Shown here: positions 16,907 through 53,060 of the stretch, one piece after another
How positions within the stretch are numbered: position 1 is the stretch's first letter
Layout: each line of letters opens with the position of its first letter
Assembly: GCA_963751455.1 (NCBI GenBank)
Contig: CAVVUN010000009.1
Coordinates: forward strand, 64,001 to 128,000
Direction of reading: 5' to 3'
From: Nitrospirota bacterium
Lineage (GTDB): Bacteria; Nitrospirota; UBA9217
DNA length: 64,000 nucleotides
The notes under the pieces: model-generated
Told to the model about the DNA's origin: nothing
The model's database searches: none
Seen by the model: only the letters and a program-made list of their open reading frames with translations
Translations under genes and position numbers: made by a program

Positions 16907-18430
16907 TTGGCTAAAGCAGTAATGATACAAGGGACCGGATCGGGCGCAGGCAAGAGCCTGATTACTGCAGCGCTCTGCAGGATCTTCTCGGACAAGGGTA
17001 TGCGGGTCGCTCCGTTCAAGGCCCAGAACATGGCGCTCAACTCCTTCATCACGCTAGAGGGCGGAGAGATCGGCAGTGCCCAGGCTCTGCAGGCTGAAGC
17101 GGCGCGAGTTCAGCCGAGCGTTGATATGAACCCCGTTCTGCTCAAAGCGTCAGGGGATATGGGTTCGCAGGTCATCATCCACGGCAAGGCCTTTCGGCAC
17201 ATGAAGGCAACGGAATATTATGCCTTTCGCAAGGAAGCCTGGAGGGCTGTTACATCATCCTATCGCAGACTTGCAAAAAAGCATGACGTCATAGTTCTGG
17301 AAGGCGCGGGCAGTCCGGCAGAAATCAACCTTATGGACGTCGACATAGTGAACATGGCTGCGGCGAAGCTGGCAAAAGCGCCGGTATTTCTTGTCGGTGA
17401 CATTGACAAGGGAGGCGTGTTTGCTTCACTCTACGGAACGGTGAAGCTTCTCGGCAGGGACGGCTCCCGCATAAAAGGGTTCATCATCAACAAATTTCGC
17501 GGAGACCCGGCAATCCTGCAGCCGGGGCTTGATATGATTTCAGAGAAAACAGGCAAGCGAGTCATCGGCGTTCTGCCCCATGTCGCGGACCTGGGACTTC
17601 CTGAAGAGGATGGGCTGGCGCTTACACAGAAGTCAGAAGCAGGAAGTCAGAAGTCAGAAGGAGAACTGTTAAGAATAGTCGTAGTCCGGTTGAAGTACAT
17701 ATCGAACTTCACTGATTTCGACGCCTTTTCACAAGAACCTGATGTAGAGCTTTTGTATTCGAGTAATCCATCGGACATCGAGAATGCGGACTTGGTCATC
17801 ATTCCCGGTTCCAAGAACACGGTCAAGGACCTCTTGTTTCTGAAGGAGCGGGGCCTCGATGAAACCATTCGGAGAACGTACGCTAAAAGCATCGAGATCA
17901 TGGGAATGTGCGGCGGATACCAGATGCTCGGGAAACGGATACTCGATCCTCACGGCGTCGAGAGCGAACATAGAGAAGTTGACGGCCTGGGGCTTCTCGA
18001 TATTGAAACGTTGTTCGATAAGGAAAAAACCACGTGCCAGGCGCATGCTGAAGTAGTTCAGAGTTCTGGGTTCAGAGTTGGGAGTGTAAAGGACGAGTCG
18101 GTACAATTAAAAGGTTATGAGATCCATATGGGGAGCAGCACAGGTAATATCGGCTTGTTCCGGCTCCGAAGGCTCGGCGATAATCACCCTGCTGATGTTC
18201 TTGATGGTTCCCGGAATAGGAACTGCTGGGGCACGTATCTGCACGGCATCTTTGATAATAATGAATTCAGACGATGTATTCTGAACGGAATCAGAGAGCA
18301 GAAGGGTCTAAAGGCACTGACCACGGGTGTTGATTACCGGGCCATGAAAGAAAAAGCCATCGACAACCTCGCCGACCTGGTCCGTAAGCATCTTGATATC
18401 GATTACATCATGAGGAGCATGGAGCGATGA
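16907..18430 (+). CDS. cbiP: Cobyric acid synthase
   Basis: MIQGTGSGAGKS, PFKAQNMALNS, EGAGSPAEINL, GTYLHGIF. Confidence 0.97.
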   Translation: MAKAVMIQGTGSGAGKSLITAALCRIFSDKGMRVAPFKAQNMALNSFITLEGGEIGSAQALQAEAARVQPSVDMNPVLLKASGDMGSQVIIHGKAFRHMKATEYYAFRKEAWRAVTSSYRRLAKKHDVIVLEGAGSPAEINLMDVDIVNMAAAKLAKAPVFLVGDIDKGGVFASLYGTVKLLGRDGSRIKGFIINKFRGDPAILQPGLDMISEKTGKRVIGVLPHVADLGLPEEDGLALTQKSEAGSQKSEGELLRIVVVRLKYISNFTDFDAFSQEPDVELLYSSNPSDIENADLVIIPGSKNTVKDLLFLKERGLDETIRRTYAKSIEIMGMCGGYQMLGKRILDPHGVESEHREVDGLGLLDIETLFDKEKTTCQAHAEVVQSSGFRVGSVKDESVQLKGYEIHMGSSTGNIGLFRLRRLGDNHPADVLDGSRNRNCWGTYLHGIFDNNEFRRCILNGIREQKGLKALTTGVDYRAMKEKAIDNLADLVRKHLDIDYIMRSMER

Positions 18431-20480: not shown

Positions 20481-21922
20481 TCATAACAGGCACGCACAGC
20501 GGATGCGGAAAGACCACGGTGACCCTCGGTATTCTTGCCGCCCTTAAAAAGAAGGGTTTTACAGTACAACCCTTTAAGACCGGTCCTGATTTTATCGACG
20601 CGGGTCTCCATCGGCTTGTTGTTGACAGGCCTTCCCGAAACCTGGATCAGTGGATGTGCGGCAGCGACTATGTTATCGATTGCTTCAATAAGCATTCGGC
20701 AAATGCCGACATCGCTGTGATCGAAGGCGTGATGGGAATGTATGACGGAGAATTCAGCACTGCTCATCTCGCGGGCCTGCTCGGCGTTCCCGTAGTTCTT
20801 GTCGTGGATGCGTACGGTATGGCTGAAAGCGCGGGAGCGGTGGTTAAAGGATTTTCCGAGTTTCGAGTTCAGAATTCAAAGTTTGCAGTAAAGCAACCGC
20901 GTTTAGCTGGGATTATATTCAACCGCGTTGCTTCCGAGAACCATTACAAAAGGCTTAAAGACAGTGTGCAGGACATACCTGTTCTCGGCTATGTCCCGAG
21001 AGAACTGAACTTCGAGATTCCTCATCGTCATCTTGGCTTGACCGTGGCGGAGGAGAATCCGCTGAGGCCCGAAAATGTCGAAGGGCTTGCGGATACGGTA
21101 TTAAAACATATTGATATTGATGAGATCGTAAGGAGTGCGGCACTTACAAAAGAGCAAAGCTATCACCGCGAAGGCGCGAAGGTCGCAAAGGAAACCAGAA
21201 CGTTTAAAGTTGCGGTCGCCTATGACAAGGCCTTCTCCTTCTATTATGAAGACAACCTTGACCTGCTTCGGGAAGCTGGCGCTGAAATTATCCGGTTCAG
21301 CCCGATTGAAGACAATGCGGTACCTGATACTGCTGATGCTCTATATATAGGCGGAGGTTATCCTGAATTACATGCGGACGCGCTGTCCCGCAATTCCTCT
21401 ATGCTTGGATCCCTACGGGCATGGAGTGATGCCGGAAAACCGGTCTATGCCGAGTGCGGCGGATTGATGTACCTTTCACAGGGCATCCGTGATTTTGATA
21501 ATGCCTTTTTCGCGATGGCCGGTGTGCTTCCATTCAAAACACGGATGATAAAAAAGCCGATGCTGGCTTACCGGAAAATCGTTCTGAATGAGAACTGCAT
21601 CCTCGGGGTTCAGGGTGACAGGTGCCGGGGGCATGAGTTCCATTATTCGGAGATGATAGAACAAAGTAGTCAGGAGGACTTCGGCGAGACTTCGGCGAGC
21701 TCAGTCGAGTCGTTCAGTCGAGCCGCAGGAGTCAGGAGCAAGGAGCCGGACAACACAGTACAAAGAATATATGCTGTAAAAAATAAAGCAGGAGAACAGT
21801 TCTTGACGGAAGGATTTCGGATCAAAAACACTCTCGCGAGCTACATCCATGTTCACTTCGGCAGCAATCTGCATATCGCGGAACGGTTCGCAGGTTTTGT
21901 AAAAGGAGATCTAAAGGCATGA
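20468..21922 (+). CDS. cbiA: Cobyrinate a,c-diamide synthase
   Basis: SGCGKTT, EGVMG, GGGYPE, YAECGG, GHEFHYS. Confidence 0.96.
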   Translation: MRGIVITGTHSGCGKTTVTLGILAALKKKGFTVQPFKTGPDFIDAGLHRLVVDRPSRNLDQWMCGSDYVIDCFNKHSANADIAVIEGVMGMYDGEFSTAHLAGLLGVPVVLVVDAYGMAESAGAVVKGFSEFRVQNSKFAVKQPRLAGIIFNRVASENHYKRLKDSVQDIPVLGYVPRELNFEIPHRHLGLTVAEENPLRPENVEGLADTVLKHIDIDEIVRSAALTKEQSYHREGAKVAKETRTFKVAVAYDKAFSFYYEDNLDLLREAGAEIIRFSPIEDNAVPDTADALYIGGGYPELHADALSRNSSMLGSLRAWSDAGKPVYAECGGLMYLSQGIRDFDNAFFAMAGVLPFKTRMIKKPMLAYRKIVLNENCILGVQGDRCRGHEFHYSEMIEQSSQEDFGETSASSVESFSRAAGVRSKEPDNTVQRIYAVKNKAGEQFLTEGFRIKNTLASYIHVHFGSNLHIAERFAGFVKGDLKA

Positions 21923-22965
21923 AGGAAAGCATTCTGCTGCTCGGACATGGAAGCCCTAAAAAAGACGCAAACAATCTCGAGCAGCTCGCGAAGATGCTGC
22001 ACGGTATGCTGCATGCCGGATGCGCGGAAGACTGCGTCAAGGTGGCGTACCTGCAGTTTGCGGAGCCCGGTATCCCGGATACGATCAAAGAGTGTGTGCA
22101 GCAGGGCGCGAAGAAGATCATCCTTCACCCGTTCTTTCTCACCGCTGGGATGCACGTGACAAAAGACATCCCGGAGATGATCCGAGATGCGCAGAAGTTG
22201 TATACTGGTGTGGAATTCGTGTATACCGAGCCGCTCGGCATTCACGAAAAGCTGGCTCATATCGTGCTGGAACGCATCAGTGCCGCGGAACAGCTTGCGC
22301 CTGAGGACATCGAAAAGAGGAGTTTCGATATTCTTTCAGCAGAAGCCGGCCTGGGCAGTGTTCCCCCGGATCGTTTGCCGATCGTACAGCGCGTTATTCA
22401 TGCAACCGCTGATTTTGACTTTAAGAACACACTTACGTTCCACCCGGATGCCGTAATAAAGGGGATCGAGGCGATTAGAGCCGGGAAGGATATCCTGACC
22501 GATGTCGAAATGGTGCGGACGGGCATCAATAAAAAGTGGCTTTCAAGGTGGGGCGGAAAAGTTGTCTGCGGGATTCAGGATGCGCGATCCACCCTGCACT
22601 CGCGCGAGCACTCGTCAACGCTGGGCCCAGGCACGATGCAGGATCACGACAAGAGAACGAGATCGGAGATCGGGATCGAGACCGCATTGCGGGAGAACGG
22701 CAACATCGGGATCATAGCCATCGGAAACGCGCCTACAGCGCTTATCAGAACGATTGGCCTTCTCGAAGACTCCGAACTCCCGATTCGGAACTCCGAACTG
22801 CTGATAATCGGTGTTCCCGTGGGCTTTGTTAAAGCTGTTGAATCAAAGGCCCTCCTTGCGGCCCAGCGGTTTCCTTTCATCACGGCTTTGGGCAGAAAAG
22901 GCGGCACGCCGGTAGCAGTAGCAATCGTTAACGCGTTATTGAAAATGGCAGGAGAGGGTAAGTGA
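21919..22965 (+). CDS. cbiX-cbiC: CbiX cobaltochelatase / CbiC precorrin-8X methylmutase fusion
   Basis: LLGHGS..., PFFLTAGMHVTKDIP then IEKRSF, RVIHATAD, GNAPTAL, GRKGGT. Confidence 0.93.
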   Translation: MKESILLLGHGSPKKDANNLEQLAKMLHGMLHAGCAEDCVKVAYLQFAEPGIPDTIKECVQQGAKKIILHPFFLTAGMHVTKDIPEMIRDAQKLYTGVEFVYTEPLGIHEKLAHIVLERISAAEQLAPEDIEKRSFDILSAEAGLGSVPPDRLPIVQRVIHATADFDFKNTLTFHPDAVIKGIEAIRAGKDILTDVEMVRTGINKKWLSRWGGKVVCGIQDARSTLHSREHSSTLGPGTMQDHDKRTRSEIGIETALRENGNIGIIAIGNAPTALIRTIGLLEDSELPIRNSELLIIGVPVGFVKAVESKALLAAQRFPFITALGRKGGTPVAVAIVNALLKMAGEGK

Positions 22966-23798
22966 GGATTCAAAGTTCAAAGTTCAAGGTTCAAATTAAC
23001 GTAGTGTTTTCTCTCACGCTTACTGCATTCTGCCTGTTGCTTGCATCAACAGATGCGCACGCGATGCACATCTCCGAGGGAATCCTGCCTTTTAACTGGG
23101 CGGTGTTATGGTTTGCCGTGTCAGTGCCGTTTGTAGGATACGGACTATACCGTTTGAGGAAGATGTCGGAAATCGATCTCTCTTTCAAGCCGCTCGTGGG
23201 ACTGATGACAGCGGTGATATTTATCATTTCCTGCATGCCCGTACCGGTACCGACTGCGGGCACCTGCTCTCATCCCTGCGGAACGGGGATATCGGGAATA
23301 TTGCTCGGCCCTGCGATCAGCGTACTGATCACCGCAGCTGCTCTCCTGATACAGGCGCTTTTCCTTGCCCATGGCGGATTAAGCACCTGGGGTGCTGACG
23401 TTGTTTCCATGGGTGTTGTAGGTTCTTTCGCGGGATATGGTACCTTTAAGCTATTACGCTCAATGAAGGTAAAGATAGCGGCTGCAGGCTTCGCAGCTGG
23501 TTTGATAGCTGACTGGGCCACTTACCTTGCCACATCCGTAGAGCTTGCATCAGGCATAAGGGGCGACTCGGCCTTTCTGCCGCTGTTCACGAAAATTGTT
23601 ATTGCCTTCATTCCTACTCAGCTCCCGTTGGGGTTCCTGGAAGGAGCCATGACCGCAGGAATGATATCCCTGCTTTCCAGGAAGAGACCGGATCTTCTGG
23701 TAAAGATGGGAGTGGTGAAAAGTCAGGAGTTAGGAGTCAGGAATCAGGGGGGGTATTGTGAAAAGTCAGGAGTCAGGAGTCAGAAGTCAGGAGTATAG
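22962..23798 (+). CDS. cbiM: Cobalt ECF transporter substrate component
   Basis: Signal peptide then MHISEGILP, GTCSHPCG, AHGG. Confidence 0.94.
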   Translation: MRIQSSKFKVQINVVFSLTLTAFCLLLASTDAHAMHISEGILPFNWAVLWFAVSVPFVGYGLYRLRKMSEIDLSFKPLVGLMTAVIFIISCMPVPVPTAGTCSHPCGTGISGILLGPAISVLITAAALLIQALFLAHGGLSTWGADVVSMGVVGSFAGYGTFKLLRSMKVKIAAAGFAAGLIADWATYLATSVELASGIRGDSAFLPLFTKIVIAFIPTQLPLGFLEGAMTAGMISLLSRKRPDLLVKMGVVKSQELGVRNQGGYCEKSGVRSQKSGV

Positions 23799-24084
23799 GG
23801 GAATAATTTTAATATTATTATTTCTCCTTTCTTTTCACTTTTCACTCTTCACTGTTGCTTCTGCTGCTGAGAAATGGACTGGCGTGGATGAAACGGTCAT
23901 TGAAAAAATTGCCAAGGAGCATGGCAGGCAGGCGCGGGAGCCGTTTGTCAACACCGACAAGGGGGACCTTCTTCTCTTCGTCTTTCTCCTTGCGGGCGCA
24001 ATCGGCGGTTTTGCAGCAGGGTATTCGTGGCGAAAGCTCATAGAGCCGAAGCAGAAAGATAATAAAAATGGAAATACTGTCTGA
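23758..24084 (+). CDS. Small cobalt transporter subunit (CbiN-like)
   Basis: KWTGVDETVIEKIA...GDLLLFVFLLAGAIGGF; sits between cbiM and cbiQ. Confidence 0.8.
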   Translation: MKSQESGVRSQEYRGIILILLFLLSFHFSLFTVASAAEKWTGVDETVIEKIAKEHGRQAREPFVNTDKGDLLLFVFLLAGAIGGFAAGYSWRKLIEPKQKDNKNGNTV

Positions 24085-26223: not shown

Positions 26224-27523
26224 AAAGCTGCGGTCCGGCTATACAACCGGCGCGTGTGCTGCTGCTGCGGCAAAGGCGGCGACAGTACTGCTAATGCGGA
26301 GCGCGGAGTGCGGGGACTTGCACCCAGTGCTAACGAGTGCGAATGCGCGAGTGCAGGGTGTGCGTAGTGAAGAGGAAATCCAGGAGGTATCAATTCCTTT
26401 TCCTGATGGGAGCAGAGTACAATTTGCTGTTCGTAACTCCTCACTCCGAACTCATAACTCCGAACTGATTTCATCGGCCTCAGTGATTAAAGACGCTGGA
26501 GATGATCCGGATGTGACGCATGGTGCGGAGATTATAGCTACAGTCCGGTTTGTGGAGTCGGGACTAAAAAATGAAGAATGTCCGCAAATCGTAATAAAAG
26601 GCGGTAAAGGTGTCGGCAGGGTAACCAAGCCCGGCCTGGCAATCCCAGTTGGCGAACCGGCGATCAATCCCGTGCCGAGGAAGATGATCCGGGAAGCAGT
26701 GATGGAAGCAATAACGGAATCCGTAAATCAACCCATCCCCCTCCCAACCTCCCCCTTGAAAGGGGAGGAACTCAATAAATTCCCTCCCCTTCAAGGGGAG
26801 GGTAAGGGTGGGGATGGGTTGGCTGCCACTCCGCACTTGGAAGTCACCATCTCCGTGCCTGCGGGTGAGGAACTAGCAAAAAAGACACTGAACCATCGCC
26901 TCGGCATTGTCGGGGGAATATCGATCCTCGGCACTACCGGTATCGTCCGTCCCGTATCCAGGGAAGCATATACGGCAACCATTACCGCGGGGATGGATGT
27001 CGCAAAGGCCATGGGTCATAGTGTCGTGGTCCTTTCGTCTGGGAGGACTTCCGAGAAAGCGCACATGAAGAAGTTTGCTTTTCCTGACGAATCCTATGTT
27101 ATGATGGGTGACTATCTCGAATTTTCGCTCATTGACGCGAAGAACCACGGCTTTAGCTCTATCCATCTGTGCGCGCAATGGGCAAAGATGATAAAGACGG
27201 CAATGTCCACACCCCAGACTCATGTCCGGCACGGAGCGATTGAGGCGACGAATGCGGCTGCTTTTCTGAGGTTCCTTGGCGTGGATGTGCCGCCGGCAAA
27301 AGAGTTCAATACGGCCCGGGAAATCTTTGATTACATAAACGCCGCATCATCCAAGCCGCTTGCGCCCAGCGTTGACGAGTGCTTGCGCGAGTGCAGGGTG
27401 CATACCGCGCTTGCCGCGGTTTGCGCAGCGGCAAAACAATACGCTGAGCGGATCACATCAGGCATCCCGGTCATCGTTCATCTCGTGTCTTATGAGGGAA
27501 AAATCATTGCAGCCAGCGAATAA
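26207..27523 (+). CDS. cbiD: Cobalt-precorrin-5B C1-methyltransferase
   Basis: LRSGYTTGACAAAA, KDAGDDPDVTHG, GISILGTTG; carries several in-frame repeat inserts. Confidence 0.95.
   Translation: MALKNKKLRSGYTTGACAAAAAKAATVLLMRSAECGDLHPVLTSANARVQGVRSEEEIQEVSIPFPDGSRVQFAVRNSSLRTHNSELISSASVIKDAGDDPDVTHGAEIIATVRFVESGLKNEECPQIVIKGGKGVGRVTKPGLAIPVGEPAINPVPRKMIREAVMEAITESVNQPIPLPTSPLKGEELNKFPPLQGEGKGGDGLAATPHLEVTISVPAGEELAKKTLNHRLGIVGGISILGTTGIVRPVSREAYTATITAGMDVAKAMGHSVVVLSSGRTSEKAHMKKFAFPDESYVMMGDYLEFSLIDAKNHGFSSIHLCAQWAKMIKTAMSTPQTHVRHGAIEATNAAAFLRFLGVDVPPAKEFNTAREIFDYINAASSKPLAPSVDECLRECRVHTALAAVCAAAKQYAERITSGIPVIVHLVSYEGKIIAASE
26729..26821. repeat. 93-bp palindromic repeat inserted in frame in cbiD
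   Basis: CAACCCATCCCCCTCCC...GGGTGGGGATGGGTTG; 31 codons. Confidence 0.88.
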
Positions 27524-31515: not shown

Positions 31516-32417
31516 AAATACAAAATTCATCGGCCAAAGGTACTGTATACATCGTCGGCACCGGGCCGGGAAGTCTTGACCATATTACGCCCGCAGCCCG
31601 AAAGGCGATCAGCAAATCGGATGTTATTGTCGGGTACGGGACCTATCTCGACCTGATTCGTGAGCTTCTGCAGGACAAGGAGGTCCTCTCCACGGGAATG
31701 ACCCAGGAGGTAGACCGGTGTCGCAAAGCAGTCGAGCTTGCACAAGGGGGCAAGACAGTTGCAGTCATCAGCGGCGGTGACCCGGGAGTCTACGCCATGG
31801 CGGGGCTCGTATTTGAGATTCTCAGGAGTCAGGAGTCAGGAGACACCCATCACTCGCGCGAGCACTCGTCAACGCTGGGCGCAGACAGGAGTCAGGAGTC
31901 AGTAGGGAAAAACTTCACACTCCGCCCGCGCCCAGCGACTGCGAGTTCTTGCGCGAGCGCAGGGTGCAATCGGCAATTGCCTCTCGTCGAAGTTATTCCC
32001 GGCATCTCGGCGCTCAATGCGAGCGCTTCCCGCCTGGGTGCTCCGCTGATGCACGACTTCGCCTGCATCAGCCTCTCGGACAGGCTTACGCCATGGGACA
32101 TGATCGAAAAGCGGCTTGAAGCAGCCGCGGCAGCGGACTTTGTCATTGTCCTCTATAATCCGCGGAGCAAAGGCAGGGCTGGTCACGTAAACAAGGCACG
32201 GGAGATTATTCTGAAGCACCGCTCGTCGGCGACTGTTGTCGGCATCGTCAAGGGCGCCATGCGGAATAATGAGACAATCATGGTAACGGATCTGCAAACC
32301 ATGAAAGACGACGATATAGATATGCAGACGACTGTTATTATCGGAAATTCGAAAACCTTCGCGTGGAACAACTTTATGATTACGCCCCGTGGATATGACA
32401 ACAAATTCAAAATTTGA
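31512..32417 (+). CDS. cbiH: Cobalt-precorrin-3B C17-methyltransferase
   Basis: VGTGPG, SGGDPGVYAMAG, GAPLMHDF, LYNPRS, TPRGY. Confidence 0.95.
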   Translation: MKIQNSSAKGTVYIVGTGPGSLDHITPAARKAISKSDVIVGYGTYLDLIRELLQDKEVLSTGMTQEVDRCRKAVELAQGGKTVAVISGGDPGVYAMAGLVFEILRSQESGDTHHSREHSSTLGADRSQESVGKNFTLRPRPATASSCASAGCNRQLPLVEVIPGISALNASASRLGAPLMHDFACISLSDRLTPWDMIEKRLEAAAAADFVIVLYNPRSKGRAGHVNKAREIILKHRSSATVVGIVKGAMRNNETIMVTDLQTMKDDDIDMQTTVIIGNSKTFAWNNFMITPRGYDNKFKI

Positions 32418-33732
32418 AATTCAAAATTCAAAATTGAAACCGGCGGCCCTGCTATGGGATGAGTCGTTTCTCTGGGGATTGATGGCGTATAGGGCTTTAA
32501 CAGCGAACGGCCTTTTGTTCGATCTTATTCGCTCCGAGGACGTAAGGAACGGCGGCCTGAAAAAGTACAGCCTCCTTTTTGTTCCGGGGGGCTGGGCATC
32601 CAACAAGATAAAGGCGCTCGGCGACGCAGGCGTCTCTGAAATAAAGGCATTTGTCCGTGAAGGAGGCGCTTATCTTGGATTTTGCGGAGGGGCAGGCCTT
32701 GCGACCATGGACGGCATGGAACTGCTGCCGGTTAAGAGAAGAGCGACGAAAGACCGAGTGCCGAGCTTCAGCGGCCGGATCAGGCTTGATACATGCGACC
32801 ATGCTCTCTGGCAGGGGATTTCCGATCCGGTCTTCAATGCCTGGTGGCCTTCGCAGTTTGTTATAGACGAAAGCGTATCCGTGCTTGCCGCCTACGGCTC
32901 GGCGCTGCCTGATTCCTTCAGCTCCGATATCAATGTCGGCGATGTTGAAGCGAATGGCAACTGGGCAGAGCTTGAGCGGTTTTACCAGATCAATCTTGAT
33001 CCCAAACGCCTGCTCGGAGAACCCGCGGTCATCGAGGGACGGTTCGGCATGGGCAAAGTTCTTTTATCGCTTGTGCATTTTGACTCGCCGGATGACAAAA
33101 ACGGCGCAATCGCGCTGAAAAACCTGTGGAGATATCTTATCGGGGAGTGCGGGACAGATAATTCAGGATTCAGAATTAATGATAAAAAAAGCGCTGTATC
33201 GTGCATCATGCATGATGTACCAATTTCAGAGCCAATACCGGCAACATCCGGAATTGGGCCTGCTGTTGACGAGTTGATCAATCTGGGAGAACGGAACTTT
33301 CTTTGGTACTGGCGAAATCCGATGCTCCTGCAGTGGAGACGGGGTGTCAGGGGGCTTGAATACTGCACACTTTATATCATGGTAAAAGAGATCTTGCGGC
33401 TATTGTCCCGGGAGGACTTGGAACGCATTGGAAGGGAAAGCGATATAAGCCTCGAACTGGTCATTAAGTTCGTCGATAAGGCGAAAAAGCTGCTGCTCCT
33501 GGAACGCTATGCCATGCAGGGTGCCCATATTACGTATGAACGGTGCGATGTGCCCGAAATCCAGGCACTTCGAGAAGAACTATTTTCCCGTTCAAAGAGC
33601 CACGGAGGAGTCTTTAAAGAGATGATCGGTCACGTTGACCGGCTGCTCTATGCAGCACTATCGGCTACGGGAGGCAAGCGTGTAAATGAAGGGAAAAACA
33701 AAAACCATACGGGTCAATTGCCCGGTATGTAA
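32389..33732 (+). CDS. BPL_N / class I glutamine amidotransferase-like protein
   Basis: LFVPGG...[16 protein letters not shown] nucleophile elbow; true start may be TTG near 32434. Confidence 0.75.
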
Positions 33733-37168: not shown

Positions 37169-37181
37169 ATTTAACTTGTGA

Positions 37182-43574: not shown

Positions 43575-43642
43575 CGGGAAAAAATGCCGACACGAAGCTC
43601 TCTCTTGTCGTGACTTAGAGTCTATTTTAACATGTTCTTTTT

Positions 43643-43714
43643 CGTCATGCCGGACTTGATCCGGCATCCAGAAAGTTATGAAAAGACCGGATTCCAGCTT
43701 TCGCTGGAATGACG
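43643..43714. repeat. REP-like double hairpin, same family as the intron target in pbpC
   Basis: CGTCATGCCGGACTTGATCCGGCATCCAG...GGATTCCAGCTTTCGCTGGAATGACG. Confidence 0.85.
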
Positions 43715-43779
43715 TTTTGTTTGCGTGATATAAATATAATTATAATTATACAGTCAGGATAAAGATAAGGAGGTGCCGC

Positions 43780-44445
43780 ATGCCTCAAAATACGAGAATA
43801 CGGGTGTACGCATGGGAATTTCCGGTCCGGTTCACGCACTGGATGAATGCGCTCTGCCTCGTGGCCCTCAGTATCACCGGGTATTACATCGCGTATCCGT
43901 TCATCCATGCTGTGTCGACCAGTCAGAACATCATGGGGTGGATGCGGTTTATTCACTTCGTGTCAGCGTACGTTCTCCTGATGATGATCATCATCAGGAT
44001 CTACTGGATGTTTGCGGGCAACCGCTATGCGAGCTGGAGGGTTTTTATCCCGCTTACAGGGCGTCAGTGGGAGGACATGTGGGCGGGGCTGAAGTTTTAT
44101 CTGTTCATGACGAGAAAGCCTCCCTACGCAGTCGGGCATTCTGCAATGGCGTCGATTACGTATCTGGCAGTCTTCCTCCTGTTCCTCTTCGAAATCGCGT
44201 CCGGCTTTGCGCTTTACTCACAGGGCAACAGGGGGTTCTTTAACGCTGTCCTGGGCGGCTGGCTTCTGGCGTTCATGAACGTGCAGACGATACGGTTGTG
44301 GCACCATCTCGTTATGTATTTTCTTCTGGTCTTCACAATCATCCACGTGTATATCGGCTGGTATCTCGACAGCGCCGAGAAGAACGGGGTCATGGGATCC
44401 ATATTCGGAGGCTATAAGTTCGTCACCGGAAAAGAGTGGGAATAG
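43780..44445 (+). CDS. Ni/Fe-hydrogenase b-type cytochrome subunit 1
   Basis: WEFPVRFTHW, RFIHF, RLWHH, IHVY. Confidence 0.94.
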   Translation: MPQNTRIRVYAWEFPVRFTHWMNALCLVALSITGYYIAYPFIHAVSTSQNIMGWMRFIHFVSAYVLLMMIIIRIYWMFAGNRYASWRVFIPLTGRQWEDMWAGLKFYLFMTRKPPYAVGHSAMASITYLAVFLLFLFEIASGFALYSQGNRGFFNAVLGGWLLAFMNVQTIRLWHHLVMYFLLVFTIIHVYIGWYLDSAEKNGVMGSIFGGYKFVTGKEWE

Positions 44446-44516
44446 GGGGGATAATGAATTGCAAATTGCAAAGTTAAAAGTGAAAAGATAATAATCAAAG
44501 AGCTGTACCGCGAGAA

Positions 44517-45068
44517 ATGAAAAAGAATCAAACAAAAAAATCTCAATATGTGACCGTCCTCGGACTCGGCAATATTCTCCTTTCCGATGAAGGCGTGGGT
44601 GTGCATGCCGCATGCATGCTGAGGAAAAAATATTCTTTTACTCCCAAGGTCGAGATCATTGACGGCGGCACAATGGGTCTCGACCTTCTACCGCTTTTTC
44701 AGGACCGAGATCGCATACTGATCATGGATGCAGTAGACTTCGGAAAGCCGCCGGGCCACATCGCAATGGTCGAGGGAGATGCTATCCCATCAGTACTCAA
44801 ATCAAAACTATCCGTCCATCATATCGGCCTCTCCGATCTGCTTCTAGCAGCAAAACTGACGCGTCATACCTCTCTTGAAATTTGTCTCGTGGGCATCCAG
44901 CCGCAATCCTTGGATATCGGTCTCGAATTAACGGAAGGGATCCGCACCGGGATGGACGTTTTAATCAAGAAGGCAGTTCAGAAGTTGACAGAATGGAATA
45001 TCAGCTGTAACGCTCGATCGGCACCTCACGAAGAAAATATCTCCAACCTTCTTCAATTGTCTTTATAA
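44517..45068 (+). CDS. Hydrogenase maturation protease 1
   Basis: LGLGNILLSDEGVGV, DGGTMG, DAV, SVHHIG. Confidence 0.94.
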   Translation: MKKNQTKKSQYVTVLGLGNILLSDEGVGVHAACMLRKKYSFTPKVEIIDGGTMGLDLLPLFQDRDRILIMDAVDFGKPPGHIAMVEGDAIPSVLKSKLSVHHIGLSDLLLAAKLTRHTSLEICLVGIQPQSLDIGLELTEGIRTGMDVLIKKAVQKLTEWNISCNARSAPHEENISNLLQLSL

Positions 45069-45378
45069 TAACCCCTTGATTTATAAACCCGCCTTTATCT
45101 GCCTCATTCTGATCAGTTCTGTCATATCAGGTCTAGAATCCTGGCTCCTCATGATCCATGCATATGCGAATTCTTATCGAATTATGGCCATATTCCAAAT
45201 TAAGATACAGTTTAACAATAACAAAAACTGATAAAAATATAAGTTTGACAAATAGGCTGCTGTATGCTATTGATAATCCGGCTGTAACCTTCTGCACCAG
45301 TTAGCAGTGTTCCTGGAAAAATAATAATCTGAACAATAATCGTTTCAGTGTTTTTTCGTCAATTAACCGACAAGGAGG

Positions 45379-46494
45379 ATGCTTATGGGTAAGAAAGACG
45401 AAGTAAGCAGCCAGTTTCTCGATGCGCTCGAGTTCCGGGGCATCAAACGAAGAGATTTTTTAAAGTTTTGTACTGCAACCGCCGCCCTTCTCGGACTTTC
45501 TGAATTCCAGGCCCCTCAAATAGCCGCAGCCCTGGAAAAGGCTGCCAAGAGACAACCTGTTGTCTGGCTTAATTTCGCATCCGATTCAGGATGCACCGAA
45601 GCATTCATCAAGGCAACCTACCCGAATCCAGCCCAAGTCATCCTCGATATCCTGAGCGTTGATTACAACGAAACCATTATGGCCGCGGCCGGCAAACAGG
45701 CGGAAGAAATACTTGCCTCATCAGCGAAGGCCGGCGGCTATATCCTGATCGTAGAAGGTGGCATCCCGACCAAAAAAGGGCACGGCATGATCGGGAACAA
45801 GGAAATGCTCGATGTGCTGAAGGAAATGGCAGCGCCCGCTGTTGCCGTGATCGCAATCGGCAGCTGCGCAACCGATGGAGGCGTGCCGGCCGCGAAGCCG
45901 AATCCCTCGCAGATCATTGGCACCGGCGAGGCGCTCAAGAAGGTCAATATCAGCAAGCCGCTCATCAATCTTGATCTCTGCCCCGTGAATCCGGAATACC
46001 TTGTCGGTGTGGTGGTCAATTATTTGCTTCTCGGGAAGATCCCGGATCTCGATGGCTTCGGAAGGCCGAAGATGTTCTATGGACAGACGATACACGACAA
46101 CTGTGAACGGCGGGCGCACTTCGACGGAGGCAGATTTGTCGATAAATTCGGCACTCAGGAAGAGGCTTTGGGTTATTGCCTGTACAAAATGGGCTGCAAG
46201 GGGCCGATGACCTATTCCGCATGTCCAAAGATCCAATACAATGACCGGACGAGCTGGTGCATCAAGGCCGGCGGGCCGTGCATCGGCTGCGCTGAGCGGG
46301 GATGGACGGACAAGTTTGCAGGGTTCTATGAACCCCTGCCCGGAGTGAAAATACCGGGTCTGGGCGGCGTGGAGGCAGGTGCCGATAAGATAGGGGCAGT
46401 TGCCGCAGCGGCCACGGCCGTCGGCATCGCGATTCATGCAGCAGCAACGGGAACTTCCGGAAGGACCAAAGAAAAAGACGGAGGTAAAAAATAA
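45379..46494 (+). CDS. [NiFe]-hydrogenase small subunit 2
   Basis: Tat KRRDF, proximal motif SDSGCTE, HDNCERR, CLYKMGCKG, CIGC. Confidence 0.95.
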   Translation: MLMGKKDEVSSQFLDALEFRGIKRRDFLKFCTATAALLGLSEFQAPQIAAALEKAAKRQPVVWLNFASDSGCTEAFIKATYPNPAQVILDILSVDYNETIMAAAGKQAEEILASSAKAGGYILIVEGGIPTKKGHGMIGNKEMLDVLKEMAAPAVAVIAIGSCATDGGVPAAKPNPSQIIGTGEALKKVNISKPLINLDLCPVNPEYLVGVVVNYLLLGKIPDLDGFGRPKMFYGQTIHDNCERRAHFDGGRFVDKFGTQEEALGYCLYKMGCKGPMTYSACPKIQYNDRTSWCIKAGGPCIGCAERGWTDKFAGFYEPLPGVKIPGLGGVEAGADKIGAVAAAATAVGIAIHAAATGTSGRTKEKDGGKK

Positions 46495-48086
46495 TGGCCA
46501 GGATAACCATAGACCCGATGACAAGGATCGAAGGACATCTGAGGATCGATGTCGAGATCGAAGGCGGCAAGGTAAAGGACGCATGGACAACCGGTACGCT
46601 GTTCCGGGGCTTCGAGATCATCCTGCAGGGAAGAGACCCGAGGGATGCCTGGCATATAACGCAGCGGATCTGCGGAGTCTGCCCGACGTCGCACGGCCAT
46701 ACCTCCTCCATGAGCATGGATGATGCCTTCAAGGTTAAACCGCCGGACAACGGCCGCATCATAAGAAATATCGTAGAAGGCGCACAGTTCGTACATTCCC
46801 ATATCCTCTGGTTCTATCACCTGAACGCTCTGGACTATGTCGATGTTGTCTCGGCCTTGAAGGCCCAGCCCAAAGAGGCCTCCCTCAAGAAAGTGCAGAA
46901 CAAACTCAAGTCCTTTGTCGAGTCCGGGCAGCTCGGCCCGTTCGCAAACGCATACTGGGGGCACCCTGCATACAAACTGCCGCCTGAGCTCAATCTCCTT
47001 GCTGTCGCCCATTATCTTGAAGCGCTGGAAATGCAGGCAAAGGCCGCCCAGGTGAGCGCGCTCTTCGGCGGAAGGATGCCGATGACGATGACGAGCCCAC
47101 CCGGAGGCGTAACCCATGTGCCTACAGTGGACGATCTCAAAAACTATCTCTTCAGGGTCAAGGAACTGCAGGACTGGATCGACAATGTTTACATCCCGGA
47201 TGTGCTCGCGATTGCGCCCTTCTACCTGAGCTACGCAGGCGTGGGAAAGGGCCACGGCAACTTCCTGTCCTGGGGTGTTTTTGAAGACGCTTCGTTCGAT
47301 CCCAAGAAACGGCTCCTGCCGAGGGGAGCCATATTCGCCGCTGATTTCCCCAAGGTGCATGATGCGAAGCCTGAGGACGTGACAGAGCATACATCCCACA
47401 GCTGGTACAAGGGTGGGAAACCGCTGAATCCGGCCGTGGGCGAGACGGACCCGGATTACACCGGGTACGATTCGAACAAGAAGTATACCTGGGCCAAGGC
47501 GCCCCGGTTCCAGAACAAGCCCATGGAAGTGGGCGCCCTTGCCAGGATGCTCGTGGCATATGCCACAGGACAGCCCACTGCCAAGAAGATGATCGACGAC
47601 ACGCTCGCGAAGATAGGGCATGCCGGGCAGCCGCAGGTGCTTCTGGGTGTGGTCGGCAGAATCGCAGCGCGCGCGCTGGAATGCAAAATGATCGCGGATG
47701 CGATGTACCAATGGGGCATCGACCTTGTAACGAACATAAAGAACGGGAATACAGCGGTCTATAACGATTACAAGATACCCGACAAGGCGCAGGGAATCGG
47801 TCTCTGGGAGGCGCCTCGCGGAGCGCTTGGCCATTGGATCGACGTCGAAGGCAAGAAGATCAAGAACTACCAGTGCGTAGTTCCGACCACGTGGAATGTC
47901 TGCCCCCGAGACGATAACGGGGTGCGCGGACCGATCGAGCAGGCGTTGGTTGGAACTGCCGTTGCCGACGCCAACAAGCCTCTTGAAGTGATGCGGGTAG
48001 TCCATTCCTTCGACCCGTGCCTTGCCTGTACGGTACATGTGATCCATCCCGAGTCGAACCGGATTATGGACTTCAAGGTCTCATGA
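46494..48086 (+). CDS. [NiFe]-hydrogenase large subunit 2
   Basis: RICGVC and DPCLAC (all Cys) plus cleavable C-terminal tail. Confidence 0.97.
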   Translation: MARITIDPMTRIEGHLRIDVEIEGGKVKDAWTTGTLFRGFEIILQGRDPRDAWHITQRICGVCPTSHGHTSSMSMDDAFKVKPPDNGRIIRNIVEGAQFVHSHILWFYHLNALDYVDVVSALKAQPKEASLKKVQNKLKSFVESGQLGPFANAYWGHPAYKLPPELNLLAVAHYLEALEMQAKAAQVSALFGGRMPMTMTSPPGGVTHVPTVDDLKNYLFRVKELQDWIDNVYIPDVLAIAPFYLSYAGVGKGHGNFLSWGVFEDASFDPKKRLLPRGAIFAADFPKVHDAKPEDVTEHTSHSWYKGGKPLNPAVGETDPDYTGYDSNKKYTWAKAPRFQNKPMEVGALARMLVAYATGQPTAKKMIDDTLAKIGHAGQPQVLLGVVGRIAARALECKMIADAMYQWGIDLVTNIKNGNTAVYNDYKIPDKAQGIGLWEAPRGALGHWIDVEGKKIKNYQCVVPTTWNVCPRDDNGVRGPIEQALVGTAVADANKPLEVMRVVHSFDPCLACTVHVIHPESNRIMDFKVS

Positions 48087-48099
48087 GAAGGAGGATGCC

Positions 48100-48738
48100 A
48101 TGACAAACCAAATGACAAAAGAGTGGAGCCTTGGCTACATCCTCGATCACTGGCTCAGGGTGGCAGCCATAGCTGTGCTTATTTTTACCGGCCTTTATAT
48201 TCACTGGCCGTTCATTCCGGGCGGGCCAGAAAGCTTCATCATGGCCTCGATGCGGTTCTTCCACTTTGTGGCGGCGTATGCGCTGATCCTGGGGCTCGTT
48301 CTGCGGGTATATATGGCGTTCCGGTCCACGTTCGATCCCGACTGGAAGGACTTTTGCGTAAGCGAAAACCTGAAAAACCTTCCGGACATCATGGGCTACT
48401 ATCTTTTTATAAAGAAGTCGCATAAAGACTACCGGAAGTACAACCCGCTCCAGGCACTATCGTATCTGTTTGTAGCCCTGGTTATCATATTCACGGCCTT
48501 TACCGGGGCGGCTATCTACCACGGAAGGCTGTTTATGGTATTTCCCCAAGACAGTTTCCGGTGGGTGAACTCGATGTTTGGCGGGGAGCCTTATACCAGG
48601 ATATGGCACATTCTGTCCATGTGGTTTTTTATCATCTTCATGCTGATCCATGTCTACATGGCGTTGATGATATCCTGGGTGAATAAAGACAGGACCTTTT
48701 CATCGATTTTCACCGGTTACAAACTGAAAAAAGATTAA
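48100..48738 (+). CDS. Ni/Fe-hydrogenase b-type cytochrome subunit 2
   Basis: DHW, RFFHF, KYNPLQ, RIWH, IHVY. Confidence 0.93.
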   Translation: MTNQMTKEWSLGYILDHWLRVAAIAVLIFTGLYIHWPFIPGGPESFIMASMRFFHFVAAYALILGLVLRVYMAFRSTFDPDWKDFCVSENLKNLPDIMGYYLFIKKSHKDYRKYNPLQALSYLFVALVIIFTAFTGAAIYHGRLFMVFPQDSFRWVNSMFGGEPYTRIWHILSMWFFIIFMLIHVYMALMISWVNKDRTFSSIFTGYKLKKD

Positions 48739-48740
48739 TT

Positions 48741-49247
48741 ATGATATTGAATGAAGAGTTGCGGGGAGGCGTCTCAGCGCTTCCCCGCAAAGTTTTGATA
48801 CTCGGTGTAGGCAACCTGCTCCTCACGGACGACGGCTTCGGCGTCCATCTGATCAATTCCCTCAAAGAAACGATTTTCCCGGAAAATGTATCCCTGCTCG
48901 AAGCAGGGACGGTCAGCCATCAGTTGGTCCCGCTGCTGCACGAGATGGACCACCTGATCGTTATAGATGCGGTTCAGGCCGGCGATGCGCCTGGTGCGCT
49001 GTTCCGTTTTTCGCCGGAGGATATCCGTTATCAGTCCGAGCAAATGGTCTCCTTGCACCAGATAAGCCTGATTGACGTTTTGCGGATGGCTGAACTTACG
49101 GGTCGAAAGCCGAAGACCGTCATTATCGGTGTCCAGCCGAAAGACGTTTCCTCGTGGTCGCTCGAGTTGACAGACGAACTCAGGGCGGTAATGCCCCGGG
49201 TCAGGGAACTGGTATTTGAAGAACTGAGGAAAATTGAGATCCTGTGA
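48741..49247 (+). CDS. Hydrogenase maturation protease 2
   Basis: LGVGNLLLTDDGFGV, DAV, SLHQ. Confidence 0.93.
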   Translation: MILNEELRGGVSALPRKVLILGVGNLLLTDDGFGVHLINSLKETIFPENVSLLEAGTVSHQLVPLLHEMDHLIVIDAVQAGDAPGALFRFSPEDIRYQSEQMVSLHQISLIDVLRMAELTGRKPKTVIIGVQPKDVSSWSLELTDELRAVMPRVRELVFEELRKIEIL

Positions 49248-49364: not shown

Positions 49365-49904
49365 ATGTGTCTTGCAATTCCCTCTAGAATTATCAGCATA
49401 AACAATTTATTTGCCACCGTTGACGTTTTCGGCGCCAGGAAAGAAGTGAGCCTCATGCTCATGCCCGAGGAGATCACGATCGGGGACTACGTCCTGGTCC
49501 ATGCCGGTTTTGCAATCCAAAAAGTCGATAAAGAGATCGTCGAAACGGGAAAATCCATGCACGAAACCGCTCTTGCACTCAGTATTCTGGATATCATAGT
49601 GGAAAAATGCAGTGAAGCAGGCGGCCGAACAGTCGATTCCGTAAGGGTCAGGATCGGGAAGGCCGCCGGCGTGCTGCCTGAGGCGCTTCAATTCGCGTTC
49701 GAGGCGGCAAAGACTACCACCGTTGCGGAAAAGGCCGAGTTGATCATAGAGAGTGTACCCGTGGGAGGGTCGTGCAATGATTGTAAAAAAGATTTTTCCG
49801 TTGACGACGTTCCTTATGTATTCGCCTGCCCGCTCTGCGGCTCCAAAGCGTTCGAGATCAAGACAGGACGCGAGATGGAAATCGTTGACATGGAGGTAAA
49901 TTAG
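49365..49904 (+). CDS. hypC-hypA: HypC-HypA fusion
   Basis: MCLAIP...GDYVLVHAGFAI then in frame MHE...CxxC...CPxC...GREM. Confidence 0.9.
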   Translation: MCLAIPSRIISINNLFATVDVFGARKEVSLMLMPEEITIGDYVLVHAGFAIQKVDKEIVETGKSMHETALALSILDIIVEKCSEAGGRTVDSVRVRIGKAAGVLPEALQFAFEAAKTTTVAEKAELIIESVPVGGSCNDCKKDFSVDDVPYVFACPLCGSKAFEIKTGREMEIVDMEVN

Positions 49905-50052
49905 CCCCGAAAATTTCACCGCGAAGACGCTAAGGACGCGAGGAAGTCTCTAAGGGCGGAAAGTATTATCTGCCGTAAAGATAGGTGTCCATGGTTTCCT
50001 CGCGCTCTTCGCGCCCTCGCGGTTAGTCCCGTTTTGCTCTTTGGAGGTTTTT

Positions 50053-50697: not shown

Positions 50698-53060
50698 TAA
50701 AAGGCATCGTCCAGGGAGTAGGCTTCCGGCCCTTTGTCTTCAATCTGGCGGAATCCCTCGGGCTCAAAGGCTACGTGACGAATACGGGCGCCGGGGTGCT
50801 TATCGAGGTCGAGGGCGAATATCTTCGCTTATTTTTGGAACGCTTGAGCCGTGAGGCGCCTCCGCTTTCCCGGGTTACGGATATTTCAGTTACCCGTCTT
50901 CCCTGTTACGGTTATTCCGATTTTTCGATTCAGGCCAGTATTGATTGCGCTGAAGGCCATCCGTTTACACTCGTCTCTCCCGATGTTTCCGTATGTGATG
51001 ATTGCGTGCGGGAATTCACAGATCCGGCAGACCGGAGATATCTCTATCCCTTCATCAACTGCACGAACTGCGGACCCCGGTTTTCGATTACAAACGCGGT
51101 GCCGTACGATAGGCCGAATACGACAATGGCTTCTTTCGGCATGTGTCCGGATTGCCTTCGTGAATACCATGATCCTCGGGACCGCAGGTTTCACGCCCAG
51201 CCGAATGCCTGCCCGAAATGCGGACCAACAGTCGAATTCAGAGTCCGGGGTGCTGAGCGCCGAGTGAAGGGGACAGATGCAATCAGAGAGACAATAACAC
51301 TGCTGAAACAAGGCGGCATTGTGGCCGTCAAAGGCATTGGTGGTTTTCATATCGCATGCGATGCAGTGAACAACGATGCTGTAAGGATGCTTCGCGAAAG
51401 AAAAAGAAAAAGCAATAAGCCGTTTGCGGTTATGGCGCCTACGGCAGCGGCAGCACAATCTTTCTGCTCGATATCGAAGGAGGAGGAGATGCTTCTTCAA
51501 TCGAACAGGCGGCCGATCGTCCTTCTCAAAAAGCAGGGTGGCGGGTTGTCTGATGACGTAGCACCAAACAATCAGTACGTCGGCGTTATGCTTCCTTATA
51601 CGCCTCTGCATTATCTTCTTTTTCATCATTCTCTCGTTAGGGGGCAACGCGTCGTGGACTCGCATTTCACGGCACTGGTAATGACCAGCGGAAACCTTTC
51701 CGAAGAGCCGATCATCCGGGACAATGACGATGCTCTGAAGAAGCTGGCACATATTGCTGATGGTTTTCTTCTGCATAATCGTGATATCTTTATGCGGGTC
51801 GACGACACGGTCATCCGATTGCGGAGTGAAAATACAGCAGTTTTGTCATCTCAATCCAAAATTTGTTTCATCCGCCGCTCTCGCGGCTATGCCCCCGATC
51901 CGATCGCTCTTCATGACGACGGACCCGAGGTCCTGGGGTGCGGGGCCGACCTTAAGAATACATTCACATTGACCAAAGGAAAATTTGCCATTCCGAGTCA
52001 GCATATCGGCGACATGGAAAATTATGAGACCGTCAGGTTCTACGAAGAGAGCCTTGAGAACCTGAAGGCAGTTTACCGGGCTGATCCGAAGGTGATTATC
52101 CACGATCTGCATCCGGAATACCTGTCCACTAAATGGGCGATAGAATGCGGAGTCAGGAGTGCCGAGTTCGGAGTGAAAACGTATGGTATCCAGCATCACT
52201 ATGCGCACATCGGTTCGGTCATGGCGGAACATGGCCTTAAAGACAAGGTTATCGGGGTCGCTTTGGATGGGACAGGCTATGGTACGGATGGCAATCTCTG
52301 GGGTGGAGAATTTCTTATCGCTGGTATAGACGGGTTTGAGAGGGCAGGACAATTCCAGTATGTGCCTCTTCCTGGCGGTGAAGCAGCAATCAGAGATCCC
52401 TGGAGGACTGCGGTAAGCTATATAGCGGAATCTGAAGGAGCGGGATTATGGGAAAGTTTGGAAATTGCAGGCTTTAAAAGAAAATACGGGAAAGACCTTC
52501 TGGAGAAGGTCATAAAGATTGCCGCATCGAGGGAACTGTCTCCTCTTGCCTCAGGAGCCGGCAGGCTGTTCGATGCTGTTTCAGCGCTCCTCGGTATCTG
52601 CGATAGAAATACATTTGAAGGCGAGGCTGCAATGGCATTGGAATCCTTTACTTGCGACGGCATTGAGGACGAGTATCCGTTTGAGTTGCGAGAAAAAAAA
52701 GAATATACTGTCGTACAATTCAGCACAACATTCAAGGCGATCCTGTCCGATATGGCGGAAACAGTAAGTACTGAAAAGATGTCGACCCGCTTTCATAATA
52801 CTGTGATATCGGCCATACGCAGGACTGTAGGAAAGATAACAGAACAGTCCGGGATTACTGACGTCGCGCTGAGCGGCGGAACGTTCCAGAACAGGTATAT
52901 TTTGAATAAAACGCTGACGGCGCTTTCGTCAGACGGTATGCAGGTTTACACCAACCTGAATGTTCCCTGCAATGACGGAGGCATTTCACTCGGTCAGGCA
53001 TACCTGGTCAGGGAGAGGCTTAAGGAGTGCGGAATTCGAAGTGCGGAGAGCGGAGTTTAG
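50673..53060 (+). CDS. hypF: Carbamoyltransferase HypF
   Basis: GIVQGVGFRPFV, zinc fingers, HDLHP, QHHYAH, NDGGISLGQ. Confidence 0.97.
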   Translation: MVERAQVIVKGIVQGVGFRPFVFNLAESLGLKGYVTNTGAGVLIEVEGEYLRLFLERLSREAPPLSRVTDISVTRLPCYGYSDFSIQASIDCAEGHPFTLVSPDVSVCDDCVREFTDPADRRYLYPFINCTNCGPRFSITNAVPYDRPNTTMASFGMCPDCLREYHDPRDRRFHAQPNACPKCGPTVEFRVRGAERRVKGTDAIRETITLLKQGGIVAVKGIGGFHIACDAVNNDAVRMLRERKRKSNKPFAVMAPTAAAAQSFCSISKEEEMLLQSNRRPIVLLKKQGGGLSDDVAPNNQYVGVMLPYTPLHYLLFHHSLVRGQRVVDSHFTALVMTSGNLSEEPIIRDNDDALKKLAHIADGFLLHNRDIFMRVDDTVIRLRSENTAVLSSQSKICFIRRSRGYAPDPIALHDDGPEVLGCGADLKNTFTLTKGKFAIPSQHIGDMENYETVRFYEESLENLKAVYRADPKVIIHDLHPEYLSTKWAIECGVRSAEFGVKTYGIQHHYAHIGSVMAEHGLKDKVIGVALDGTGYGTDGNLWGGEFLIAGIDGFERAGQFQYVPLPGGEAAIRDPWRTAVSYIAESEGAGLWESLEIAGFKRKYGKDLLEKVIKIAASRELSPLASGAGRLFDAVSALLGICDRNTFEGEAAMALESFTCDGIEDEYPFELREKKEYTVVQFSTTFKAILSDMAETVSTEKMSTRFHNTVISAIRRTVGKITEQSGITDVALSGGTFQNRYILNKTLTALSSDGMQVYTNLNVPCNDGGISLGQAYLVRERLKECGIRSAESGV

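Follow-up and report, generated by a model that had tools for sequence, protein, structure and literature searches.

Seven-base-pair tandem repeats translated within cob and hyp genes of a Nitrospirota bacterium share their units with arrays that bracket four-helix-bundle genes

The stretch of DNA analyzed here (the window; 64,000 nt, positions 64,001 to 128,000 of contig CAVVUN010000009.1 in the Nitrospirota bacterium assembly GCA_963751455.1) carries cobalamin (cob) and hydrogenase maturation (hyp) genes, many of which contain short, degenerate tandem heptamer tracts translated as part of the protein; further tracts occupy gene junctions and intergenic sites (Table 1). Gene names were taken from NCBIfam profiles, and the closest named relatives of the window's CbiP come mostly from Nitrospirota metagenome-assembled genomes. 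The label cbiN has a positional basis only, with no confirming profile, and the BPL_N label that an earlier note gave to the open reading frame (ORF) at 32389-33732 was confirmed by neither NCBIfam (E <= 1e-8) nor Pfam (E <= 1e-10).

The heptamer tracts are real and exceed chance. All 17 stretches named in the earlier note are present where it placed them, and 16 are significant on their own, with per-site scores of 8-25 (a score of at least 8 is reached by 0.2% of random coding 45-mers); the remaining one, at 51235 in hypF, scores only 6 and does not stand alone, but clean arrays occupy the same codons in orthologs. Tracts beyond that list lie at 21726, 23821, 28185, 31822 and 31883. Period-7 runs in the window (21-nt windows with at least 17 matches) number 7; of the other periods between 2 and 15, period 14 has 3 and the rest have 0-1 each. 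In the genome of the window (G000, 5.72 Mb), the period-7 scan proposed in the note gives 348 runs (at least 16 of 21 matches), far above the 3 and 4 found in two codon-block shuffles. A segment scan of G000 detects 468 tract segments with 137 different consensus units; among 64-kb bins on the large contigs, that of the window ranks first in density, with 16 segments, and cob/hyp genes are strongly enriched in tracts (9 vs. 0.43 expected, in a region picked post hoc). The genes reported as tract-free are indeed so: best scores are 4-7 in metK, ahcY, four hydrogenase subunit genes and two kinases, and those of response regulator and methyltransferase genes fall in the same range. Period 7 is enriched but is not an exclusive class: periods 8, 9 and 10 are enriched too (61, 206 and 89 runs). 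A 7-mer library scan was discarded as unspecific (35 matches vs. 18-45 in shuffles).

Table 1. Heptamer tracts in the window. Lengths compare residues in the window with the median of array-free orthologs; aa, amino acids.
Position	Strand	Feature	Score or length
12424..12447	+	intergenic heptamer tract upstream of recO (named by NCBIfam)	score 11
17627..17660	+	purine arm (CAGAAGT) in CbiP/CobQ aa 241-252	score 15
18055..18085	+	purine arm within a variable loop of CbiP (aa 383-393)	
20854..20884	+	arm in CbiA aa 130-139	23 vs. 16 aa, a net gain of 7
21726..21746	+	CAGGAGT arm in CbiA, beyond the earlier list	score 10
22769..22799	+	pyrimidine arm (ACTCCGA) in CbiX-CbiC fusion aa 284-294	
22966..22994	+	purine arm (TTCAAAG) directly following the start codon of cbiM	CbiM model begins at aa 35
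23018..23043	+	decayed pyrimidine arm, hydrophobic region of CbiM leader	score 7
23721..23794	+	two AGTCAGG purine arms, cbiM end/cbiN-like start	
23821..23856	+	pyrimidine arm (CTTTTCA) encoding a portion of the hydrophobic segment at the N-terminus of the cbiN-like ORF	score 17
26431..26466	+	pyrimidine arm in CbiD aa 75-87	20 vs. 17 aa
28040..28076	+	AATCCGC pyrimidine arm, CbiET aa 229-239	17 vs. 14 aa
28185..28240	+	CAGGAGT arm split by ~42-bp nested element, CbiET-276	33 vs. 14.5 aa
29050..29130	+	composite repeat inserted into CbiL	39 vs. 10.5 aa
31818..31905	+	AGTCAGG arms with nested element in CbiH	56 vs. 14 aa
32403..32439	+	AAATTCA arm over cbiH stop and N-terminus of ORF 32389-33732	score 20
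33160..33217	+	decayed arm pair in ORF 32389-33732	45 vs. 37 aa
38631..38716		arm-spacer-arm hairpin after ahcY, intergenic	
44453..44491	+	AATTGCA arm, intergenic	
51235..51266	+	purine arm, decayed, at HypF aa ~191-201	no length change between anchors, 28 vs. 28 aa
52144..52175	+	single purine arm at HypF aa ~494-504	19 aa in the window
53024..53057	+	purine arm forming HypF C-terminal tail	
54119..54240		arm-spacer-arm hairpin between hypD and hypE, intergenic	

Across G000, a simple custom gene caller assigned 378 of 555 tracts to intergenic DNA, 92 to gene ends and 85 to gene interiors; the in-gene counts are low because this caller misplaces some starts. An inverted partner lies within 150 nt of 214/378 intergenic, 45/92 gene-end and 10/85 internal tracts, compared to 16/300 controls, and among neighboring tracts the purine arm comes first 61 times and the reverse order occurs once. 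The full form is therefore a purine arm, a spacer (median 26 nt) and a pyrimidine arm, and the in-gene tracts are mostly single arms of this class, translated in frame inside unrelated genes. The 20 host genes looked at elsewhere in G000, from a total of 66, include guaA, hisF, mutL, recJ, nifEN and queC. Avoidance of strongly codon-adapted genes is at most a tendency, 8/706 genes in the top quartile of codon adaptation being hit vs. 18, 24 and 12 in the remaining quartiles (p=0.053), and no enrichment in leaders was seen genome-wide (4/11 N-terminal tracts, against a background of 1330/4986).

Paired arms look like two separate arrays that have a unit in common rather than like mirror copies: interior identity is 0.737 in register, 0.724 when shifted by 7 and 0.740 within an arm, and the whole-arm mirror excess is small (0.786 vs. 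0.775, 3/500) and possibly an end bias. Selection on RNA structure was not seen either in this arm-mirroring comparison or in base pairing, with 138 G-U against 144 A-C pairs over 156 stranded elements and no transcribed-strand bias; the sense strand is the more stable in 86 of these. Single arms are no less pure than paired ones (0.81 vs. 0.80, a comparison that the detection threshold possibly biases). Target-site duplications are absent at the approximate ends of 174 elements, where 4-, 5-, 6- and 8-mers are duplicated in 42, 10, 4 and 1 cases (permuted expectation 42.2, 12.3, 3.5 and 0.2). A long-range arm-pair search in G000 found 7 purine-first pairs and no new cargo family, and turned up one broken four-helix-bundle copy.

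The window holds no four-helix-bundle (PF05635/TIGR02436) gene. In relatives, an upstream array lies beside 42 of the 44 such genes that have enough flanking sequence, and 30/44 have arrays on both sides, compared to 4/82 control windows, a co-location that the earlier note had suggested; 39 of the 42 upstream arms are purine-rich. Arms in the window share units and purine-then-pyrimidine polarity with the arms around these genes. The window units GAGTCAG, GAGTTCG, GATTGCG, AATTGCA and AGAAGTA each flank a four-helix-bundle clade, and the AATTGCA family (44453..44491), the commonest in the genome, flanks the four-helix-bundle genes L182 and L183. Unit distance falls as protein identity rises: units lie within 1 base in 19/54 pairs with more than 60% identity vs. 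12/398 pairs with less than 40%. Genes of each four-helix-bundle clade are bracketed, at a variety of genomic locations, by arms of that clade's unit. The proposal that the system is defined by period and structure rather than sequence is not supported in that form, because the unit families track the protein clades.

Array density follows the same genes. It was counted as four-unit pattern occurrences across 64 genomes of the family, 45 of which have a four-helix-bundle match; the median is 45.9/Mb in these and 2.7/Mb in the 19 match-free genomes, or ~17-fold fewer, and the trend persists inside genera g19 and g11. In one relative, among 129 loci scanned, the cob operon itself contains a full cassette, with cbiN on one side and cbiQ on the other. 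G000 itself has four PF05635 matches over the cut-off, flanked by arrays of periods 5, 7 and 9, and a further, broken copy between GATTGCG arms. At G000:C2:320592-321052, a four-helix-bundle gene between CAGGGGT-type arms is split by a hairpin of 9-bp units.

Arm pairs without a gene fill gene junctions that are otherwise empty. The hypD-hypE junction is empty in 8/13 relatives and filled in 5/13 by other hairpin families, and the junction hairpins are therefore insertions, as the earlier note had supposed; at the junction of cbiH with ORF 32389-33732, most relatives have overlapping genes without the arm.

Inside genes, the picture is mixed. The note's expectation that the tracts are insertions of length 3n holds at some sites, namely CbiH, CbiL, CbiET-276 and CbiA, which are true insertions, but many others, including HypF-195, CbiC, CbiD, CbiET-229 and both CbiP sites, are near length-neutral replacements. 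Some relatives have full hairpins where the window has one arm: at HypF ~500 (full hairpins with a median of 33 aa, or none with 16 aa), at CbiA aa 130-139 (full or composite hairpins, or a C/G-run hairpin), at CbiP-383 (in some relatives the complete arm-spacer-arm form) and at CbiH, where relatives also hold arm pairs of unmatched units. Both CbiP tracts lie in or beside loops modeled with low confidence: the aa 241-252 arm is a predicted disordered linker (predicted local distance difference test score, pLDDT, <50 at aa 236-248; 18 aa vs. a median of 14.5 in 68 array-free orthologs), and the site at aa 383 has 21 vs. 18 aa and pLDDT <50 at 391-397. In CbiC, the arm replaces a conserved, repeat-free 14-aa loop allele with 15 aa (+1); at CbiET-229, 7/7 array alleles measure 17 aa with 5 different units. 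In HypF, an array replaces a strand. The CbiD arm covers a predicted strand-turn-strand (E77-83, E86-94, pLDDT 92-96) that can be aligned to distant homologs lacking repeats across a gap of just 2-4 residues; over the same codons, relatives carry purine arms of other units, on the opposite strand. A fold search with CbiD matched 1SR8 only, and the sequence alignment with 1SR8 misses the tract. The alignment of the CbiD strand, the HypF strand and the leaders with conserved structural positions, which the note had named as a point against itself, tells against insertion at these sites and not against a repeat origin.

Other repeats share these genes. At window positions 26735-26812 (cbiD aa ~172-208), a translated C-run/G-run hairpin is inserted in a predicted disordered loop, and relatives have heptamer arms there instead. 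Elements of 27-42 bp are nested in frame inside heptamer arms at 28196-28240 and 31846-31882 in the window and at loci L056, L069, L042 and L004; the element at 28196 has 25 matching genomic loci (at least 22 nt). They presumably resemble the small dispersed repeats (SDRs) of cyanobacteria.

In the cbiM and cbiN-like genes, the arms lie at protein ends. The TTCAAAG arm encodes the basic n-region of the CbiM leader, and the hydrophobic-region site, decayed in the window, has clean arrays in relatives. The first of the two AGTCAGG arms lies in the CbiM C-terminal tail; the second is read twice, as CbiM tail and as the n-region of the overlapping cbiN-like ORF that starts at 23758. In a recurrent pattern, the basic region comes from a purine arm, which often begins at the start codon, and the hydrophobic region from a pyrimidine arm that usually has a different unit. 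Arrays are present in 14/24 CbiM and 14/19 CbiN leaders, and the others are repeat-free with a similar build. Pattern and hydropathy suggest that these leaders are likely signal peptides; the CbiN hydrophobic segment may alternatively be a membrane helix.

Units at a given position turn over. At 9 in-gene sites, 4-9 distinct units were found among the 4-13 array alleles at each (8 among 13 at CbiP 17627), and arms of unmatched units occur within single sites. A DNA process must keep the period-7 purity because 7 is not a multiple of 3, and protein selection cannot do so. Within one genome, units from separate sites resemble each other more than permuted ones do (0/2000; 4/2000 in the window's clade), and the array score within HypF correlates with genome-wide density (rho 0.69, 20 genomes). 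In cbiC of L038, one perfect array allele lies inside a clade of repeat-free alleles (support 99), and aa 274-297 form a ~70-nt mosaic patch matching distant relatives that are only ~80% identical elsewhere. In G000, two very large ORFs, mostly without Pfam matches (L187 and L188, G000:C4:30289-33996 and 42701-49192), carry 5-6 arrays each, with differing units.

On balance, the tracts are probably arms of the dispersed class that brackets four-helix-bundle genes, produced by a REPIN/RAYT-like mobile system that inserts arms and then replaces them, and this system appears to rewrite the same spots repeatedly. From co-occurrence, polarity, the match of units to clades and the replacement pattern, all seen directly, we infer binding, mobility and an enzyme role. 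The four-helix-bundle protein would recognize its own unit as DNA and would be required for its spread. In-gene elements would survive only where frame and fold are kept, and the survivors would then shed the spacer, one of the arms and native codons beside them, which would bring the loop back close to its original length. The pattern at the sites is that of arms refreshed one by one with units from the genome's current repertoire, and a corresponding process may be at work. Protein selection would fix phase and length, and therefore purine arms in leader n-regions, tails and loops supply residues that are basic or polar, and pyrimidine arms in leader h-regions and strands supply hydrophobic or Ser/Leu-rich ones. 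In a bolder version, doubtful but conceivable, the four-helix-bundle proteins would be specificity subunits of a transposase-free DNA-overwriting system in which each clade writes its own 7-bp unit on top of resident sequence, one arm at a time and near length-neutrally, rebuilding signal peptides, beta-strands and loops of working enzymes; such a system may cause the heptamer excess of bacteria.

Several observations weigh against a mobile system of this kind. Agreement between clades and units is also expected from plain co-inheritance, the genomes being kin. G000 has hundreds of arrays, yet its four over-cut-off genes are flanked by minor units, and its GATTGCG-flanked copy is broken. Three match-free genomes are array-rich (83-90% complete), and six genomes with a match are array-poor. 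The sharing of units across sites is absent in a second clade (622/2000, 24 pairs), and the dependence of the HypF array score on four-helix-bundle gene presence is not significant (p=0.13). Homing-like co-conversion of flanking sequence gives no overall signal (Stouffer z 0.95 over 11 sites), the patch in L038 cbiC being the sole clear case. To our knowledge, the four-helix-bundle fold has no catalytic role, and none of 29 Y1 transposase (PF01797) matches has an array within 900 nt. In addition, the CbiD model may borrow its strand from the repeat-free homologs in the alignment used, and the leaders were judged by pattern and hydropathy.

Local turnover of simple sequence repeats (SSRs), with a single entry or slippage followed by drift in place through copying at transient misalignments, no trans-acting system at work and the four-helix-bundle genes as passengers, would account for units at one site that are often 1-3 bases apart and often common to sister taxa, and for a frameshift inside the cbiC array of one relative that fits the loss of exactly 7 nt (possibly an assembly collapse); a heptamer excess in bacteria is described as unexplained in the available part of one report (PMC4692102). 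This account is nevertheless unlikely, as it leaves unexplained the purine-first inverted pairing, the filled and empty junctions, the 17-fold density link, the sharing of units across sites of one genome, the strand flips and the perfect array among repeat-free alleles. The replacement near length-neutral and the arms that are independent rather than mirrored, sometimes of unmatched units and always pointing inward, would also fit if repeats were written enzymatically, with an Avd-like protein and a polymerase or reverse transcriptase making tandem units at breaks or nicks, or by overwriting with cDNA of transcribed arrays as in the retrohoming of diversity-generating retroelements (DGRs); PF05635 resembles Avd (PMC10053308, accessible text). 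That is quite unlikely given that variation is not adenine-biased (A 0.14, C 0.23, G 0.17, T 0.23), that G-U pairs have no strand bias, and that density is unrelated to an RVT_1 match (p=0.25), 15/33 match-free genomes, many of them drafts that may miss copies, being array-rich.

Two further accounts dispense with mobility. Regulatory or architectural sites bound by a nucleoid or four-helix-bundle protein and kept by selection on the host would fit the post hoc cob/hyp enrichment; global regulator sites are proposed for paired Geobacter repeats (PMC2700814) and a translational role for heptamer repeats (PMC4679880), in the accessible portions of these papers. Units and orientation are unconserved at orthologous sites, many relatives lack the arrays, and unrelated hairpin families fill the same sites, all of which makes this account very unlikely. 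Hardly credible, finally, is phase variation, in which gain or loss of one 7-bp unit toggles cob and hyp genes. These genes are conditionally dispensable, and the cbiC frameshift just described is of the -7 type, both of which would fit. The arrays, however, are short and degenerate, all listed ORFs of the window are open, only 4/29 frameshift-like breaks lie at arrays (after 2 rows with N-runs were dropped from 31), with 2 of these 4 in an error-rich assembly, and phase variation is further disfavored because the hosts include guaA, hisF, mutL, recJ and queC.

The probable mobile system has partial counterparts, which are compared here through the accessible parts of the cited papers. Like REPIN/RAYT (Bertels and Rainey 2011, PMC3116915), the class has spaced inverted pairs, hundreds of dispersed copies, singlets beside doublets and insertion into existing elements; the partner-gene types of that system each have their own repeat group, as clades have their units here. 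The doublet form prevails intergenically but not in genes, the partner is a four-helix-bundle protein rather than a Y1 (HUH) transposase, and the arms are tandem heptamers common inside genes, whereas REPs (repetitive extragenic palindromes) are palindromic. Closest in form are the Geobacter heptanucleotide elements (PMC2700814, PMC2996986), with 4-5 tandem heptamers within and between genes, some as opposite-strand pairs, a MTYCTGA class that resembles the window units, and insertion in genes without frameshift (Aklujkar 2009, 2010). In-gene heptamer tracts are thus already known; the Geobacter elements are read as regulator sites, and the parts of those papers that were available describe no four-helix-bundle link, unit swaps or coding replacement. 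Rickettsia palindromic elements are likewise translated in frame in unrelated housekeeping genes, but they form ~150-bp families with a conserved peptide and added length (PMC10969869), compared to arms of 25-40 bp, over 100 units (137) and frequent replacement of native sequence. The heptamer SSRs of Xanthomonas, Nostoc and Beggiatoaceae share period 7 and about four units, with frequent inverted pairs in Xanthomonas; they differ in having one dominant unit per genome studied, a mostly intergenic placement and, in the text available, no named partner gene (PMC4692102, PMC4679880). Avd of DGRs and the protein of 23S rRNA intervening sequences (IVS) belong to PF05635, the family of the array-bracketed genes (PMC10053308); here there is no reverse transcriptase link and no adenine-specific change, and the four-helix-bundle genes inspected sit between protein genes. 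Unlike miniature inverted-repeat transposable elements, the class has no target-site duplication above chance; its arms are common to the four-helix-bundle cassettes, with Y1 the only transposase type compared.

A literature search that covered few subscription papers found no description tying heptamer arms to the four-helix-bundle family or to signal peptides and leaders, and no relevant description of in-frame insertion of short tandemly repeated repetitive (STRR) sequences. The repeat/partner-gene class is apparently unpublished, and what looks new is that structured and leader sequence is replaced. The class is one of dispersed non-autonomous repeats with a partner gene; its mechanism is possibly new.

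The window has other features of its own. Hairpins or tracts of 8-10-bp tandem units lie in intergenic DNA at 12121-12222, 16790-16873 and 15318-15343; inverted arrays resembling them flank GxxExxY genes in G000, and these 8-10-bp arrays with GxxExxY genes are a parallel repeat/partner-gene class. A group II intron on the minus strand (9228-10760; RF00029 at 9228-9306), whose RVT_1 ORF at 9575-10147 is apparently split from 10003-10689, interrupts a penicillin-binding protein 1C gene that is itself in at least 3 pieces. At 5581-6994, a DDE_3 transposase ORF on the minus strand, which we take to be IS630-like, adjoins an IS200/IS605 transposase ORF. Two tandem cobalamin riboswitches precede cobT (13497-14114) and an S-adenosylhomocysteine (SAH) riboswitch precedes ahcY (37082-37171). 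CbiX-CbiC (21919-22965) and CbiE-CbiT (27360-28841) are fusions, as are HypC (aa 1-57) and HypA (aa 65-178) in a single ORF (49365-49904). The first hydrogenase large subunit (41867-43618) has a stop and a change of frame that break it near its N-terminus; an intact second copy lies at 46494.

What the analysis adds is the replacement pattern, a table of clades and units, co-occurrence at the genome level and a set of negative tests. It joins two loose ends, the excess of 7-bp repeats in bacteria and the unexplained role of the large PF05635/TIGR02436 family, and the link is directly testable because each protein clade predicts the unit that it should bind. In practice, start-codon calls are displaced by such arms, which also look like lineage-specific protein motifs. 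At the in-gene sites, repeat DNA takes over parts of proteins, among them leader n- and h-regions and a predicted beta-hairpin, with interchangeable units in a fixed phase, a clear natural case of non-coding repeats giving rise to new coding sequence.

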